A DNA stretch of 64,000 nucleotides from an uncultured Ignavibacteriales bacterium. GTDB taxonomy: Bacteria > Zixibacteria > MSB-5A5 > GN15 > FEB-12. Shown here piece after piece: positions 22,084 through 40,121 of this stretch. The first letter of the stretch is position 1; each line of letters starts with the position of its first letter. The stretch spans positions 71,749 to 135,748 of the forward strand of contig CAZTBP010000005.1 of the NCBI GenBank assembly GCA_964612145.1. The letters are read 5' to 3'. Both the position numbers and the translations under genes were made by a program. The notes under the pieces were generated by a model, which was not told where the DNA came from, ran no database searches, and was given only the letters and a program-made list of their open reading frames with translations.

Positions 22084-22926
22084 ATGGAAATCCCGTTTGC
22101 CAAATACCATGCCCTTCGCAACGATTTCCTCGTAGTTGAGGCCGGATCCCGTCGAATGGCGACCCGGCGGGTCGAACGTCTGGCTGCGGCCCTTTGTGAC
22201 CGTCGGACGGGCGTGGGAGCCGACGGCATCTTGTATCTCGGGGCGAGCAAGAAGGCCGAACTTCGGGCGGACGTATACAATGCCGACGGGTCCTGGGCCG
22301 AGAAATCGGGCAACGGCTTGCGTATTATCGGCTTGCATGAATTCCTCAAGAGTCGGACGCGGAAGAGATTCACTATTGAAATGGGGGGAGAGGTCTCAGA
22401 GGTCAGAATCGGTCGTCGGTCGGGCAAGGGCTACGTGATTTCCACTGACCTCGGTAAACCGTCGTTTGAGGCGGCTTCGGTGCCGGTCAATTCAAAACAG
22501 CGGTACATGATTCAGGCCCCGTTGAAAATCGGCAATGTGGAACTGCCGGTCACCTGCCTCTCTGTAGGCAATCCACACACTATCCTCTATGTCGACAATT
22601 TCGATTTTGACTGGCAGACACTGGGCGGCGACATCGAGATACACGACGCATTCCCGGAAAGAACCAACGTTGAGTTCGTGAAAATCCTGAGCCCAAAGAA
22701 ACTACAGGTCGCCGAGTGGGAACGCGGCGCCGGACCTACCGGTTCTTCGGGTACCGGCGCCGCTGCTGCCGTTGTGGCTTCGGTCATGTCCGGGTTTGTC
22801 GACCGGGACTGCGAGGTGCAGTTTGAACCGGGGTCGATCCAGGTTACCTGGCACGAAAAGACCGACATCATTGAGCTGGCCGGTCCGGTAGAACCGGTCT
22901 GCACCGGATCGCTGGAGTTTTCATGA
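22084..22926 (+). CDS. dapF: Diaminopimelate epimerase
   Basis: FAKYHALRNDFLVVE, SGNGLR, SVGNPH and ERGAGPTGSSGTGAAAA (two catalytic-Cys-region motifs of DapF). The ORF track starts at 22048. Confidence 0.9.
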   Translation: MEIPFAKYHALRNDFLVVEAGSRRMATRRVERLAAALCDRRTGVGADGILYLGASKKAELRADVYNADGSWAEKSGNGLRIIGLHEFLKSRTRKRFTIEMGGEVSEVRIGRRSGKGYVISTDLGKPSFEAASVPVNSKQRYMIQAPLKIGNVELPVTCLSVGNPHTILYVDNFDFDWQTLGGDIEIHDAFPERTNVEFVKILSPKKLQVAEWERGAGPTGSSGTGAAAAVVASVMSGFVDRDCEVQFEPGSIQVTWHEKTDIIELAGPVEPVCTGSLEFS

Positions 22927-24386
22927 TTCCGTTCTCAAAAGTGCAAATACTCAATCGGCAGGGCAACGTCATCCCTGTCTTCGAGCGGATCCCCGCCGAC
23001 CTCGATACGCCCGTATCGGCCTACATCAAGCTGGCGCTCGGCAAGCGCGAGTCCTTCCTGCTGGAGTCCATTGAGGGTGGCGAGAAATTGGCCCGCTACT
23101 CATTTCTCGGGTTCGATCCCTTCCTGGTCATTGAGGGCGAGGCAGACCGCGTGGTCCTTCGACAGGGGCGTAAAAAACGCACTGTCAAAAGTGATCCGCT
23201 GGCCTTTGTCAAAGAGATGTTCTCCTACTATAAGCCGGTAAAAGTGGGAGGGCTGCCTCGGTTTACCGGTGGTGCGGTTGGTTACTTTGCCTACGATATC
23301 ATTCGTTGGATCGAGAACGTCCCGGATGACAACCCCGATGAAATCGGACTGCCGGCTATGCATCTCGGCATGTACCGCAATTTGGTCGTCTTTGATCATC
23401 TCAAACAGGAGATGCTGCTGATCTGCAATATCCTTCACGAAAAGGGCGATTCAGGCCTCAAGGACAAGTACGATGAAGCGGTCGAAACAATTAACCGATT
23501 CAAAAAGCAGTTGGCCGGCTCACGCCGCAAAGCTCCTGCTGATCCGTCGAAGAAAGCCTGCGCAAGCGCCCACTGCTCCGAATCCGAATTCACGAAGATG
23601 GTTACGCGAGCCAAAAAATATATCAGAGAGGGCGACATCTTCCAGGTTGTACTCTCCCAGCGGTGGCATGTGAACACCGATCTGGCGCCTCTGACGGTCT
23701 ACCGGCGACTGCGTCGGATCAACCCCTCGCCGTACATGTTCCTGTTGGACTTTGGGAAGGCGTCGGTGGTCGGCGCCTCTCCCGAGATGCTCGTTCGAGT
23801 AGAAAAAGGCACGATTGAAACACGCCCGATCGCCGGTACCCGTCCGCGCGGGAAAGACGAAGCGCACGATGACAAACTGGCTGCGGAACTCCTGGGGGAT
23901 CCCAAAGAACTGGCCGAACACACGATGCTGGTCGATCTTGGGCGTAACGACGTGGGCCGCGTGAGTGCTCCGGGGACAGTCGAAGTCCGGGACAAAATGA
24001 TTATCGAAAAATACTCCCATGTCATGCATATTGTAAGTTCGGTGGTCGGCGAGCTCGCGCGCGGCATGAGCCCGATCGAAGGACTGGCTACCTGTTTTCC
24101 GGCCGGAACGGTTTCCGGTGCGCCTAAAATACGCGCCATGGAAATTATCGATGATCTTGAAGGCGAGCGGCGTGGGGTGTATGCCGGAGCGGTGGCTTAT
24201 CTGGATTTCTGGGGCAACCTGGATTCGTGTATTGCGATTCGTACTGTTGTCAGAAAAGGCAAACGATACTACGTCCAGGCCGGGGCCGGAATAGTGGCCG
24301 ATTCCCGGCCGGCCAGGGAGTTCCGCGAGACTCGAGCCAAAGCCGGCGCCCTGCTGGCAGCCCTGGGAGTTGAGTCCGATAAATAA
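22923..24386 (+). CDS. trpE: Anthranilate synthase component I
   Basis: LESIEGGEKLARYSF, GDIFQVVLSQR, SPYMF, RPIAGT and GAVAYLDFWGNLDSCIAIRT motifs. ATGA overlap with the dapF stop. Confidence 0.95.
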   Translation: MIPFSKVQILNRQGNVIPVFERIPADLDTPVSAYIKLALGKRESFLLESIEGGEKLARYSFLGFDPFLVIEGEADRVVLRQGRKKRTVKSDPLAFVKEMFSYYKPVKVGGLPRFTGGAVGYFAYDIIRWIENVPDDNPDEIGLPAMHLGMYRNLVVFDHLKQEMLLICNILHEKGDSGLKDKYDEAVETINRFKKQLAGSRRKAPADPSKKACASAHCSESEFTKMVTRAKKYIREGDIFQVVLSQRWHVNTDLAPLTVYRRLRRINPSPYMFLLDFGKASVVGASPEMLVRVEKGTIETRPIAGTRPRGKDEAHDDKLAAELLGDPKELAEHTMLVDLGRNDVGRVSAPGTVEVRDKMIIEKYSHVMHIVSSVVGELARGMSPIEGLATCFPAGTVSGAPKIRAMEIIDDLEGERRGVYAGAVAYLDFWGNLDSCIAIRTVVRKGKRYYVQAGAGIVADSRPAREFRETRAKAGALLAALGVESDK

Positions 24387-24452
24387 GAAACACACTGCCG
24401 AATCGAGCGGCACGTATAGTCTTTGGTAGCCCCGATAACAGGAAGAAAGGCA

Positions 24453-38583: not shown

Positions 38584-39715
38584 AGTCAATCTCGGCGACC
38601 GAAGCTACCCTATTAGTGTCGGTAGCGGTAAGTGGGAAAACGAATTGAGCCGCAGGGTCAAAGCGGTCGTGCGTTCCGAAGCGAAGGTTTTTGTCCTATC
38701 AGATGCCAACGTCTATTCTTTGTTTGGATCACCCATCGCAGCGGCAGTTCATCGATCAGAACGAACAGCGATTGAATTGACATTGCCCGCCGGGGAAAAG
38801 ACTAAGAGCGTCCGATACCTCAACGACATTCATACGTTTCTTCTCGATCACAAAGTCACCCGATATGACCTGATTGTCGCTGCGGGCGGTGGCGTTCTGA
38901 CCGACCTGGCCGGATATGCAGCAGCAACCGTGCTTCGGGGCATCCGATGGGGAGCCGTTTCCACCACGCTGCTGGGCATGGCCGACGCTGCCATCGGCGG
39001 CAAAACCGGTATCAACCACCCGCTCGGCAAAAACCTCATCGGCGCTTTCTGGCAGCCGTCGTTCGTGATCTGTGACACCGACTTCCTCCAGACATTGCCC
39101 GTGCGACAACTGATCGCCGGGCTCGGTGAAGTCGTCAAATACGCCGGCCTTGCCGGTGACGATTTTTTAGCCGAAATCAAGCGTTATCTTTCCGCCGGCG
39201 ATCTGCTCGATGAACGTCGTCTCCGAAAGCTGATAAGCCTCTCCGCTGCATACAAAGCCGACATCGTTTCGCGCGACGAACGAGAGGGGAAACTTCGGAT
39301 GCTGCTCAACCTCGGTCACACCTTCGGTCATGGAATCGAACAGTCGCTCGGTTTCGTGCGGTTGTTACATGGCGAGGCGGTGCTGATCGGCCTGCTTGGA
39401 GCAATCGAATTGAGCTGTCTGCTCAAACCGTCTCGCACAGGCCGCCTGCACGCCTATCGTGAACTTGTGTTCCACCTGGTATCGTCACTGCCGAAACGAA
39501 AGATTTCTGCCGATAAAGTTATTGATGCCATGGCCCGAGACAAAAAACGTCGTGAGAAGGCACAGAGATTTGTCTTGATTGACCGTCCCGGTCAACCGTT
39601 TATTACGCACGATGTATCGCAGCAAGCCGTGCGGGAGGCCGTGACGGCAATGCTGGAGCACTATAAAGCCAAAGGAGTTCGGCATGCCAAAGGTCCTGAT
39701 CGTAAACGGACCTAA
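38570..39715 (+). CDS. aroB: 3-dehydroquinate synthase
   Basis: AAGGGVLTDLAGYAAAT, GGKTGIN, LNLGHTFGH and HGEAV metal/NAD motifs. Confidence 0.92.
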   Translation: MAQIRVNLGDRSYPISVGSGKWENELSRRVKAVVRSEAKVFVLSDANVYSLFGSPIAAAVHRSERTAIELTLPAGEKTKSVRYLNDIHTFLLDHKVTRYDLIVAAGGGVLTDLAGYAAATVLRGIRWGAVSTTLLGMADAAIGGKTGINHPLGKNLIGAFWQPSFVICDTDFLQTLPVRQLIAGLGEVVKYAGLAGDDFLAEIKRYLSAGDLLDERRLRKLISLSAAYKADIVSRDEREGKLRMLLNLGHTFGHGIEQSLGFVRLLHGEAVLIGLLGAIELSCLLKPSRTGRLHAYRELVFHLVSSLPKRKISADKVIDAMARDKKRREKAQRFVLIDRPGQPFITHDVSQQAVREAVTAMLEHYKAKGVRHAKGPDRKRT

Positions 39716-40121
39716 CCTGAATTTGCTCGGTAAGCGCCAGCCGGAAATTTACGGCTCAGCCACATTGGACGAGCTCAACCATCGACTCAACGAGTTTGCA
39801 ACGGAACTCAAACTCGATCTTGAGTTTTTCCAATCGAATTCAGAAGCCGAGATTATAGACTTTATCCATGCCAACGGCCCGGACGCCGACGGCATGGTAA
39901 TCAATCCGGGCGCCCTGACGCACTACAGCTATGCGATACGCGATGCGATCACATCGGTGGATATTGAGACGGTCGAGGTACACCTGTCCAATATCTATGC
40001 CCGCGAGGAATTCCGGCATAAGTCAGTAATCGCTCCGGTTGCACGCGGCCATGTCGTTGGCTTTGGGTACTACGGATACGCTATGGCACTGTCGTATTTT
40101 GCCGATACTGTTAATGAATAG
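39684..40121 (+). CDS. aroQ: 3-dehydroquinate dehydratase, type II
   Basis: VLIVNGPNLNLLGKRQPEIYG, INPGALTHYS and HLSNIYAREEFRH. AAAGGAG SD. 32-nt overlap with aroB. Confidence 0.93.
   Translation: MPKVLIVNGPNLNLLGKRQPEIYGSATLDELNHRLNEFATELKLDLEFFQSNSEAEIIDFIHANGPDADGMVINPGALTHYSYAIRDAITSVDIETVEVHLSNIYAREEFRHKSVIAPVARGHVVGFGYYGYAMALSYFADTVNE

Follow-up and report, generated by a model that had tools for sequence, protein, structure and literature searches.

What kind of genetic unit is formed by a run of 20 genes that joins most of the shikimate pathway and the whole of the tryptophan pathway to genes of quite different function? The question is raised by a stretch of 64,000 nucleotides (nt) from an uncultured Ignavibacteriales bacterium placed by GTDB in the Zixibacteria (assembly GCA_964612145.1, contig CAZTBP010000005.1, positions 71,749 to 135,748), which we call the window and in which all positions below are counted. 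At positions 22084-40121 the window holds an unbroken + strand run of 19 genes, from dapF to aroQ, with 18 junctions between them. A 20th + strand gene, encoding an M3-family peptidase, begins 23 nt 3' of aroQ, and the gene beyond it lies on the opposite strand; the 20-gene span (22084-41740) measures 19.7 kb. A preliminary description made from the sequence alone had reported an 18-gene block here. The + strand run and its 18 junctions stand, while the count does not, as there are 19 genes and the conserved unit probably runs on to the 20th. We read the block as the primary, housekeeping aromatic amino acid array of this Zixibacteria bacterium, a mixed-function supraoperon of 20 co-directional cistrons, and we give this reading a probability of roughly 70%.

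The array encodes shikimate steps 1-6, all seven proteins of the tryptophan pathway, chorismate mutase (CM), TyrA and two isozymes of DAH7P synthase (DAH7PS), and in addition dapF, a major facilitator superfamily (MFS) transporter, argS and an M3 lipoprotein peptidase. The gene order is dapF-trpE-trpG-trpD-MFS-trpC-trpF-trpB-trpA-CM-DAH7PS1-argS-tyrA-DAH7PS2-aroA-aroE-aroK-aroB-aroQ-M3 peptidase. We scanned the open reading frames (ORFs) of the window with NCBIfam and Pfam models, and each gene of the array was identified. The first cistron is dapF (diaminopimelate epimerase, 22084-22926; TIGR00652, 209 bits against a cut-off of 115), followed by trpE (anthranilate synthase component I, 22923-24386; TIGR00564, 552 bits), which shares an ATGA overlap with dapF. 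After a 66-nt spacer (24387-24452) come trpG (glutamine amidotransferase component II, 24453-25019; TIGR00566, 235 bits), with its start at ATG 24453, as family alignments begin at residue 11 of the longer ORF, and trpD (anthranilate phosphoribosyltransferase, 25019-26035; TIGR01245, 397 bits), which overlaps trpG in a TGATG. The MFS gene (26039-27361; PF07690, MFS_1) lies between trpD and trpC (indole-3-glycerol-phosphate synthase, 27331-28137; NF001377, 296 bits). The start of trpC is either ATG 27331, giving a 31-nt overlap, or GTG 27358, giving a 4-nt overlap and a protein of 259 amino acids (aa), in line with its relatives (258-260 aa).

The remaining tryptophan genes are trpF (phosphoribosylanthranilate isomerase, 28137-28775; NF002298, 185 bits), trpB (tryptophan synthase beta subunit, 28759-29964; TIGR00263, 606 bits) and trpA (tryptophan synthase alpha subunit, 29961-30749; TIGR00262, 242 bits). 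They are followed by an AroQ-class CM of 96 aa (30746-31036; PF01817, CM_2), which scores 66.9 bits against TIGR01807, slightly below the cut-off of 69.55, and by the first DAH7PS gene (31045-32058; NF006421, 499 bits). A 64-nt spacer (32059-32122) precedes argS (arginine-tRNA ligase, 32123-33955; TIGR00456, 415 bits). Downstream are tyrA (prephenate/arogenate dehydrogenase, 33959-34816; PF02153 and PF20463, PDH_N and PDH_C, with NCBIfam matches under the equivalog cut-offs), the second DAH7PS gene (34804-35820; NF006421, 505 bits), aroA (EPSP synthase, 35817-37160; TIGR01356, 369 bits), aroE (shikimate dehydrogenase, 37157-38023; TIGR00507, 162 bits, and PF08501), aroK (shikimate kinase, 38020-38583; PF01202, and NF010553, 118 bits), aroB (3-dehydroquinate synthase, 38570-39715; TIGR01357, 319 bits) and aroQ (type II 3-dehydroquinate dehydratase, 39684-40121; TIGR01088, 200 bits). 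The M3-family metallopeptidase (40145-41740; PF01432, TIGR02289) carries a lipoprotein-type signal (MKRISIAIAIVLALGLGAC). Neither aroC (PF01264) nor pheA (PF00800) was matched among the scanned window ORFs of at least about 100 aa. The gene identities given in the preliminary description, the pathway steps that it assigned to the block and its statement that aroC and pheA are missing there all agree with these model matches.

The packing of these genes is very tight. Recomputed from the sequence, with negative values denoting overlaps, the junction distances in nt are dapF/trpE -4, trpE/trpG +66, trpG/trpD -1, trpD/MFS +3, MFS/trpC -31 (or -4), trpC/trpF -1, trpF/trpB -17, trpB/trpA -4, trpA/CM -4, CM/DAH7PS1 +8, DAH7PS1/argS +64, argS/tyrA +3, tyrA/DAH7PS2 -13, DAH7PS2/aroA -4, aroA/aroE -4, aroE/aroK -4, aroK/aroB -14 and aroB/aroQ -32, and every distance listed earlier was reproduced. 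Overlaps thus occur at 13 of the 18 junctions, gaps of 8 nt or less at three and gaps of about 65 nt at two. Distances of 10 nt or less account for 16/18 junctions in the block and 13/25 elsewhere in the window (Fisher p = 0.02), a crude comparison in that starts outside the block are those of maximal ORFs. Some overlap sizes are kept in relatives whose ArgS is only about 60% identical (tyrA/DAH7PS2 -13, aroK/aroB -14), and the length of the trpE-trpG spacer is clade-specific, being 64-81 nt in the clade of the window versus 1-6 nt in more distant relatives (gene calls of L082, L084, L086, L088 and L170; L numbers label the loci compared, among which are metagenome contigs without taxonomy). 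Most junctions have overlapping or abutting stop and start codons, as would be expected of a translationally coupled operon, and ribosomes may be handed from cistron to cistron by termination and reinitiation at the overlaps of ATGA and TGATG type. In two loci of otherwise full gene order, L088 (8523-8981) and L090, trpG and trpD are separated by 135-457 nt, compared with the 1-nt overlap in the window.

This gene order is real and is conserved in many independent assemblies. We collected genomic contexts through exact-protein look-ups of relatives of ArgS, the MFS transporter and DAH7PS-1, and through collection scans with ArgS and MFS alignments. The patterns of the ArgS scan were too universal: among the matches listed, 3/80 loci were from Zixibacteria and the rest served as controls, most of which have argS without an aro neighbour (69 loci from other phyla among the matches listed). 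The best named relatives of the window's ArgS are from Candidatus Zixiibacteriota or candidate division Zixibacteria (58-63% identity), and argS orthologues occur in the same context across the phylum. The full order (dapF-trpEGD-MFS-trpCFBA-CM-DAH7PS1-argS-tyrA-DAH7PS2-aroA-aroE, and onward to the end of the contig or locus) was found in at least ten independent assemblies, represented by L085 (ENA; ArgS 78% identical), L086/L087 (JGI), L088/L089 (GCA_041742355.1), L090, L116, L105, L107/L171, L111 and L170, a genome of 38% G+C. L170 and L171 hold all 20 genes including the M3 peptidase, which is also found 3' of aroQ or aroA in L002, L082, L103, L109 and L121. A metagenome-assembled genome (MAG) labelled Gemmatimonas aurantiaca (L174) has the full order from trpA onward. 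L172 (GCA_973680415.1) lacks the MFS gene but otherwise keeps this order, and each of its junctions is an overlap or a gap of 6 nt or less, DAH7PS1/argS being an overlap. Two small genes (16788-17707), for proteins of 152 and 154 aa of which one weakly matches a Gate domain, lie between aroE and aroK in L172.

As defined by Jensen and co-workers, an aromatic supraoperon brings together co-directional genes from more than one aromatic sub-pathway, in a linkage that is conserved with lineage-specific insertions and losses, and both features are present here. The definition further has such an array transcribed as a single long unit or as nested units, a point on which the promoter and terminator signals described below bear indirectly. 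The array is a mixed-function supraoperon because five of its 20 genes are non-aromatic (dapF, the MFS gene, argS, the M3 peptidase gene and perhaps trpG, should it double as pabA), and the unrelated genes dapF, MFS, argS and M3 peptidase are syntenic across the phylum.

Other relatives carry reduced versions of the array. In the trp type (L082, L084, L094, L097, L100, L101, L104, L113, L117 and L130) the order is dapF-trpEGD-MFS-trpCFBA-argS-DAH7PS2-aroAEKBQ-M3, without CM, DAH7PS1 and tyrA, and the gene calls of L082 and L084 leave no space for these three genes. CM, DAH7PS1 and tyrA are always present or absent as a set. Remnant-type loci retain only some trp genes: dapF-trpE-trpG-MFS-trpB-argS in L098, dapF-trpG-MFS-trpC-argS in L119, and dapF-trpG-MFS-argS in L106, L110, L112, L118 and L129. 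The core type (L002, L003, L103, L109, L122 and L150) is dapF-MFS-argS-DAH7PS2-aroAEKBQ-M3, a GN15 MAG (L175) has dapF-argS-DAH7PS-aroAEKBQ, and in distant loci (MFS 43-50% identical) only dapF-MFS-argS is found, with or without aroA-M3. The trp remnants beside the MFS gene resemble snapshots of a decaying tryptophan pathway, and the genes kept in them might serve other roles (e.g. PabA/B-like activity or indole salvage).

The region just upstream of dapF gives an indication of where transcription could begin. The class I/II aminotransferase gene on the same strand (20728-21960; PF00155) ends in an intrinsic terminator (21988-22015), a 10-bp GC hairpin with a 4-nt loop (21988-22011) followed by TTTTT, with a folding energy of -27.9 kcal/mol (z = -4.4; 0/200 shuffles as stable). 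A hairpin and T-run stand at this position in about 30 related loci, as part of a compact module (21961-22083 in the window) that the window shares with them (e.g. L002, L095, L098, L117, L121 and L123). The module consists of the aminotransferase stop codon, the G+C-rich hairpin with its T-run, a TTGnnn directly after it and, about 17 nt further on, a TAnnnT-like hexamer that stops 6-7 nt short of the dapF ATG. In the window, the predicted promoter, which we call P1 (22048-22076), has a -35 box TTGCAA (22048-22053), a 17-nt spacer and a -10 box TACATA (22071-22076) that ends 7 nt before ATG 22084. Anchored on the ATG, this pattern matches 51% of 49 non-redundant dapF loci and 0-5% of the regions upstream of 14 internal genes; among 200 shuffles the match rate is 6%, with a maximum of 14%. 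In 25 of 50 loci, the distance from the end of the best sigma-70-like match to the dapF ATG is 5-9 nt. We found no Shine-Dalgarno (SD)-like motif before dapF in the window. In the most distant loci (L138-L168), an SD-like GGAG precedes dapF instead of the terminator-promoter module.

The geometry of P1 predicts a leaderless dapF mRNA, with the transcript beginning at or next to the start codon, across much of the phylum. Transcription would then proceed from this conserved sigma-70-like promoter, directly after the aminotransferase terminator, into a polycistronic message that is leaderless as well. Because the predicted start lies at the dapF ATG and dapF overlaps trpE, such a message would have no 5' untranslated region to hold a leader peptide, a T-box or a protein-binding attenuator, and attenuation of the leader-peptide, T-box or TRAP type would be ruled out as a consequence of the predicted leaderless mRNA. 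An attenuation-type 5' leader is likewise absent upstream of trpE, whose start overlaps the dapF stop. At gathering score, Rfam models matched only three tRNAs in the whole window, all outside the block, and at E <= 1 they gave no T-box and no other family over 20500-42600. The trpE-trpG and DAH7PS1-argS spacers (z = -0.03 and +0.30) and the region after the M3 peptidase gene fold no better than shuffles. These results bear out three points of the preliminary description, namely the strong terminator upstream of the block, the lack of a terminator hairpin in its only two gaps above 10 nt (24387-24452 and 32059-32122), and the want of room before trpE for a leader peptide, T-box or TRAP attenuator. 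A conserved RNA element in the DAH7PS1-argS spacer was considered and rejected, as the consensus fold of the five clade members is a 5-pair stem with no useful covariation.

Whether P1 drives the entire array is less certain. The genes could instead form several independent transcription units, at least dapF-DAH7PS1 and argS-M3 peptidase and possibly more, with promoters in the 64-66-nt spacers or in coding sequence, so that the array would be a supraoperon in the loose sense. We regard this as a real possibility, though a doubtful one. It draws on the spacer of at least 50 nt found before argS in almost all relatives, and on a second promoter-like motif, P2, which lies 60-95 nt before argS and consists of TTGACA or TTGCCA, 17 nt, and then GATATT, TATCTT or TATGTT. 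P2, in the forms TTGACA/TTGCCA-17-GATATT/TATCTT, is conserved in most of the loci outside the full type: with a relaxed -10 pattern it is present in 9/10 trp-type and 4/5 remnant-type loci, in core-type loci it is found in 6/7 with the narrower pattern and 3/7 with the relaxed one, and the narrower pattern matches 32% of all argS upstream regions versus 3.5% of shuffles. Furthermore, argS is essential and should not hang on the regulation of an aromatic pathway, and a candidate intragenic promoter, TTGACA-18-TATATG, lies within trpA (30448-30477). Against several units stands the absence of P2 from the clade of the window (0/5 members), in which the DAH7PS1-argS spacers are short (51-65 nt) and G+C-rich, as well as the overlap of DAH7PS1 and argS in L172. 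In addition, 16/18 junctions are too tight for intergenic signals. A consensus scan for promoters and terminators (21000-40999) found no promoter match in the two window spacers, and neither promoter-like sites (11 versus 10.8 expected from shuffles) nor terminator-like sites (26 versus 22.6 +/- 5.1) were enriched in the block; the scan missed the clear terminator at 21988-22015 and is used as a null result only. Because the trpA site lies on a conserved TrpA peptide motif, as seen in an alignment of the 3' region of trpA, we do not judge it as a promoter.

Nested transcription units are likely in the family, because most relatives carry the conserved promoter-like motif before argS, and in most of them the array probably comprises two nested units. 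In the clade of the window, the ancestral argS promoter appears to have been lost; with that loss, read-through would account for most expression of argS and the aro genes, on one very long transcript.

The distribution of reduced arrays bears on how the supraoperon arose. Under a history of recent stepwise accretion, a dapF-MFS-argS-DAH7PS-aroAEKBQ core would have gained trpEGD, trpCFBA, CM-DAH7PS1 and tyrA by successive insertions. As such a history would have it, nothing but dapF-MFS-argS, in some cases joined by aroA and the M3 peptidase gene, is present in the most distant loci with an MFS gene (MFS 43-50% identical), and the first contexts compared looked graded by ArgS identity (core 54-60%, with trp 66-67%, full 78%). 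We nevertheless consider accretion unlikely. The full type also occurs at MFS identities of 56-59% (L107/L171, L111 and L170), and its order is shared by L172 and L174, whose DAH7PS1 proteins are just 68-70% identical. Several lineages hold partial trp remnants beside the MFS gene, and trp-bearing and trp-less loci are well-supported sisters: in bootstrapped neighbour-joining trees (ArgS; MFS+DapF), trp-bearing and reduced loci pair as L117/L112 (96-100%), L094/L098 (85-98%) and L113/L150 (96%). Related trp-CM-DAH7PS-aaRS-tyrA-aro arrays, in which aaRS stands for an aminoacyl-tRNA synthetase gene, occur moreover in KSB1 and Latescibacterota.

Given the partial remnants and the well-supported sister pairs, repeated loss of trp genes is the economical reading. 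An old origin of the tyrosine module (CM-DAH7PS1 and tyrA) is favoured by the full-type loci down to 56% MFS identity, by the wide distribution of DAH7PS-1, with more than 70 orthologue clusters at 74-93% identity, and by the related arrays outside the phylum. This suggests that the full order is old in the phylum, with fixed ends (dapF on one side and argS-DAH7PS2-aroAEKBQ on the other) between which the middle may have been repeatedly lost, both CM-DAH7PS1-tyrA and some or all of the trp genes. Transfer of CM-DAH7PS1-argS-tyrA as one module found no support; the ArgS tree and the MFS+DapF tree largely agree with one another, and the nodes that would bear on such a transfer lack resolution.

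Could the array be a redundant, specialised copy that serves a secondary product, in the manner of the trp/aro supraoperon of Nostoc and Anabaena, with housekeeping genes elsewhere? The two DAH7PS genes and the lack of aroC and pheA would fit such a role, and our evidence is confined to the window rather than covering the rest of the source genome. We consider this very improbable, however, as argS and dapF are normally single-copy and essential and have orthologues in this context throughout the phylum, all of the enzymes match primary-pathway equivalog models, and scans of the window ORFs revealed no biosynthetic tailoring genes adjacent to the array. That the block is an assembly or binning chimera of unrelated operons, which the metagenomic source might suggest and which the preliminary description would have inferred had the order been absent from related genomes, can be set aside almost entirely, since the exact ArgS protein of the 197-kb NCBI contig recurs on a 38-kb Logan contig that was assembled independently from the source sample and has the same genes, the same order recurs in the ten or more other assemblies from different samples and pipelines, and G+C is flat across the block (0.525-0.567).

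Several points weigh against a primary array read as a single supraoperon. Nearly all relatives retain the argS spacer, which in most cases contains a P2-like motif, so that transcription as one unit is improbable for the family at large. Internal promoters may also lie within coding sequence, the trpA site, conserved in the clade of the window, being one candidate. Our promoter calls use a sigma-70-like consensus that may not be that of Zixibacteria. An SD-like motif is present at only about half of the array starts, which bears on the mechanism of coupling, and the single 19.7-kb mRNA, its leaderless start and translational coupling are all points that we infer from sequence. On the evolutionary side, the nodes that decide between one gain and several losses of CM-DAH7PS1-tyrA have 5-40% support, and the polarity of loss versus gain comes from neighbour-joining trees of one to ten proteins. 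Finally, the window's 20 proteins were mapped onto all loci by tblastn, and most of the related loci are annotated only in this way, so that genes without a counterpart in the window are invisible in them.

If attenuation plays no part, control of flux could reside in the proteins. Both DAH7PS isozymes have PF18152 (FXD) and PF00793 domains and match the Thermotoga maritima DAH7PS structures 1RZM and 3PG9 from end to end, including the regulatory domain, which by sequence assigns them to type I-beta with an N-terminal ferredoxin-like regulatory domain of the T. maritima type. They are 54% identical overall in a pairwise alignment; the first 70 residues account for most of the divergence, and the regulatory domain differs more than the barrel. 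This N-terminal divergence is consistent with different effectors. Flux would accordingly be set by the enzymes themselves, through feedback on TrpE and through two DAH7PS isozymes with diverged ferredoxin-like N-terminal domains.

The MFS transporter is a characteristic component of these arrays. Its family comprises 592 homologues, nearly all of 437-442 aa and found almost only in Zixibacteria-type contigs, and is very uniform (about 441 aa); it shows the same degree of conservation as ArgS, with 55-75% identity across the phylum. NCBIfam, Pfam and the PDB give generic MFS_1 or nothing as to its substrate or family, with no solved relative at E <= 1e-3. The MFS gene is missing from L172, L175 and the KSB1 array. 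The public gene call places its start at 26180, and in a 29-member alignment invariant positions begin at about residue 23 of the long form; because conserved residues precede 26180 and the relatives are nearly all 437-442 aa long, GTG 26039 is the better start, in keeping with the one first chosen.

The aminotransferase encoded upstream of the terminator may also be connected with the pathway. Its closest solved relatives are Pyrococcus PH0207 (1X0M), Thermococcus MsAT (1WST) and Thermus LysN (E 1e-106 to 1e-90), and no NCBIfam model matched it at cut-off. An identity as DapL was rejected, its scores being far under the LL-diaminopimelate aminotransferase cut-offs, and it falls instead into the KAT-II/LysN/multiple-substrate (MsAT) group. 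The gene lies 5' of dapF in L082, L086, L088, L170, L171 and L175 and is syntenic with dapF in most relatives. Its subfamily acts on a broad range of substrates, aromatic ones among them, and the enzyme could supply the last step to tyrosine and phenylalanine.

We compared the array with known aromatic supraoperons and found no paper on trp/aro gene organisation in Zixibacteria in a literature search. The supraoperon of Bacillus subtilis has 12 genes, aroG/F-aroB-aroH-trpEDCFBA-hisHb/hisC-tyrA-aroF/E (PMC1173090). As in B. subtilis, a complete trp operon is nested on one strand among common-pathway aro genes and tyrA, with overlapping cistrons and a history of insertion and fusion. In contrast to it, the Zixibacteria array has 19-20 genes, ordered as trp, then CM-DAH7PS, tyrA and aroA-E-K-B-Q; it has trpG inside, two DAH7PS genes, argS, dapF, an MFS transporter and a peptidase, lacks a hisC-type aminotransferase within it, and has neither TRAP nor a leader region, with no regulatory space upstream of the trp genes. 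The preliminary description was right that the array is larger than that of B. subtilis and ordered differently, although closer precedents exist than the one it named. One is the 12-gene supraoperon of Desulfovibrio vulgaris, aroA'-aroB'-aroQ.pheA-aroF-tyrA followed by a 7-gene trp operon (PMC1173090), in which common-pathway genes, CM and tyrA are likewise joined to a whole-pathway trp operon. The D. vulgaris array differs in its alternative (archaeal-type) early steps, its fused CM-PheA and its lack of an aminoacyl-tRNA synthetase gene, transporter and dapF, its trp genes are downstream whereas those of Zixibacteria are upstream, and it has a proposed attenuator, of which the Zixibacteria array shows no sign.

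The closer precedents also include an array in KSB1 (L173, GCA_030950365.1), trpE-trpGD-trpC-F-B-A-CM-DAH7PS-trpS-tyrA-aroA-aroE-aroC-aroK. It shares the backbone of trp genes, CM-DAH7PS, an aminoacyl-tRNA synthetase gene and tyrA-aroA-aroE, and its DAH7PS is 66% identical to DAH7PS-1. Unlike the Zixibacteria array, it encodes TrpRS rather than ArgRS, includes aroC, lacks dapF, MFS and a second DAH7PS, and has larger intergenic gaps. A Latescibacterota array runs trpEGDC...tyrA...aroA-aroE-argS-aroK-aroB. The proteobacterial aromatic array (PMC1173090) is similar in its linkage with housekeeping or translation genes (rpsA and cmk in that array, argS and dapF in the present one) and in an order that is eroded and shuffled between lineages, but it has other partner genes, no trp genes and no early shikimate steps, and is much shorter. 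The redundant supraoperon of Nostoc and Anabaena (PMC1173090) also unites trp genes, tyrA and early aro genes; it duplicates dispersed housekeeping genes, whereas in Zixibacteria the array includes essential genes of single copy and appears to be primary. The Zixibacteria array is, then, a large and new version of a known arrangement and not a new kind of system. It differs from the described examples in its size of 19-20 genes, its order, its partner genes, its two DAH7PS genes and the absence of an attenuation device.

An aminoacyl-tRNA synthetase gene inside aro clusters recurs in Zixibacteria, KSB1 and Latescibacterota. It is argS between DAH7PS and tyrA in Zixibacteria and in the MAG labelled Gemmatimonas, argS between aroE and aroK in the Latescibacterota locus L077, and in KSB1 a trpS (L173, 11158-12141; TIGR00233, 397 bits) that fills the argS slot between DAH7PS and tyrA. 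We speculate that an aminoacyl-tRNA synthetase gene might be a functional member of aromatic supraoperons. On a leaderless mRNA of 20 cistrons and about 20 kb without an attenuator, expression could be tied to the demands of growth and translation through argS and dapF, with control of the pathway left wholly allosteric, and aromatic synthesis could not be silenced without losing an essential gene. We think it quite improbable that this extended proposal is correct. The two genes argS and dapF are also direct neighbours, in the opposite order (argS then dapF), in several MAGs of Clostridia or Oscillospiraceae (L021, L032, L034, L035, L036 and L040).

Elsewhere in the window, a - strand trehalose synthesis cluster (14110-18437) encodes a GT20 OtsA-like protein, a trehalose phosphatase, a TreT-like trehalose synthase and a DUF5752 protein; it adjoins the aminotransferase gene in L086/L087 as well. 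The three tRNA genes are on the + strand (Tyr-GTA 5059-5141, Leu-TAA 11913-12001 and Thr-CGT 18681-18755). At 60001-64000, G+C reaches 0.60 and GC skew +0.11 to +0.16, compared with 0.52-0.57 and a skew near zero in the rest of the window, in a stretch that covers a transketolase gene (59915-61960) and the next aminotransferase gene (62483-63655).

These findings do not overturn the current understanding of aromatic gene organisation; they extend a well-known theme and are unsurprising in principle. Should all 20 cistrons (19.7 kb, versus 12 genes in B. subtilis and D. vulgaris) be transcribed together, the array would rank with the longest amino acid biosynthetic operons described and would be a rare whole-pathway trp operon without a transcriptional attenuation device. 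For Zixibacteria, sigma-70-like promoters and a leaderless first cistron, both predicted features, would have their first comparative evidence in the module upstream of dapF. More generally, the full arrays, those without the tyrosine module, those with trp remnants and those with no trp genes form a natural series of operon erosion between the same fixed ends, which bears on the origin of tryptophan auxotrophy in uncultured bacteria of sediment and groundwater.

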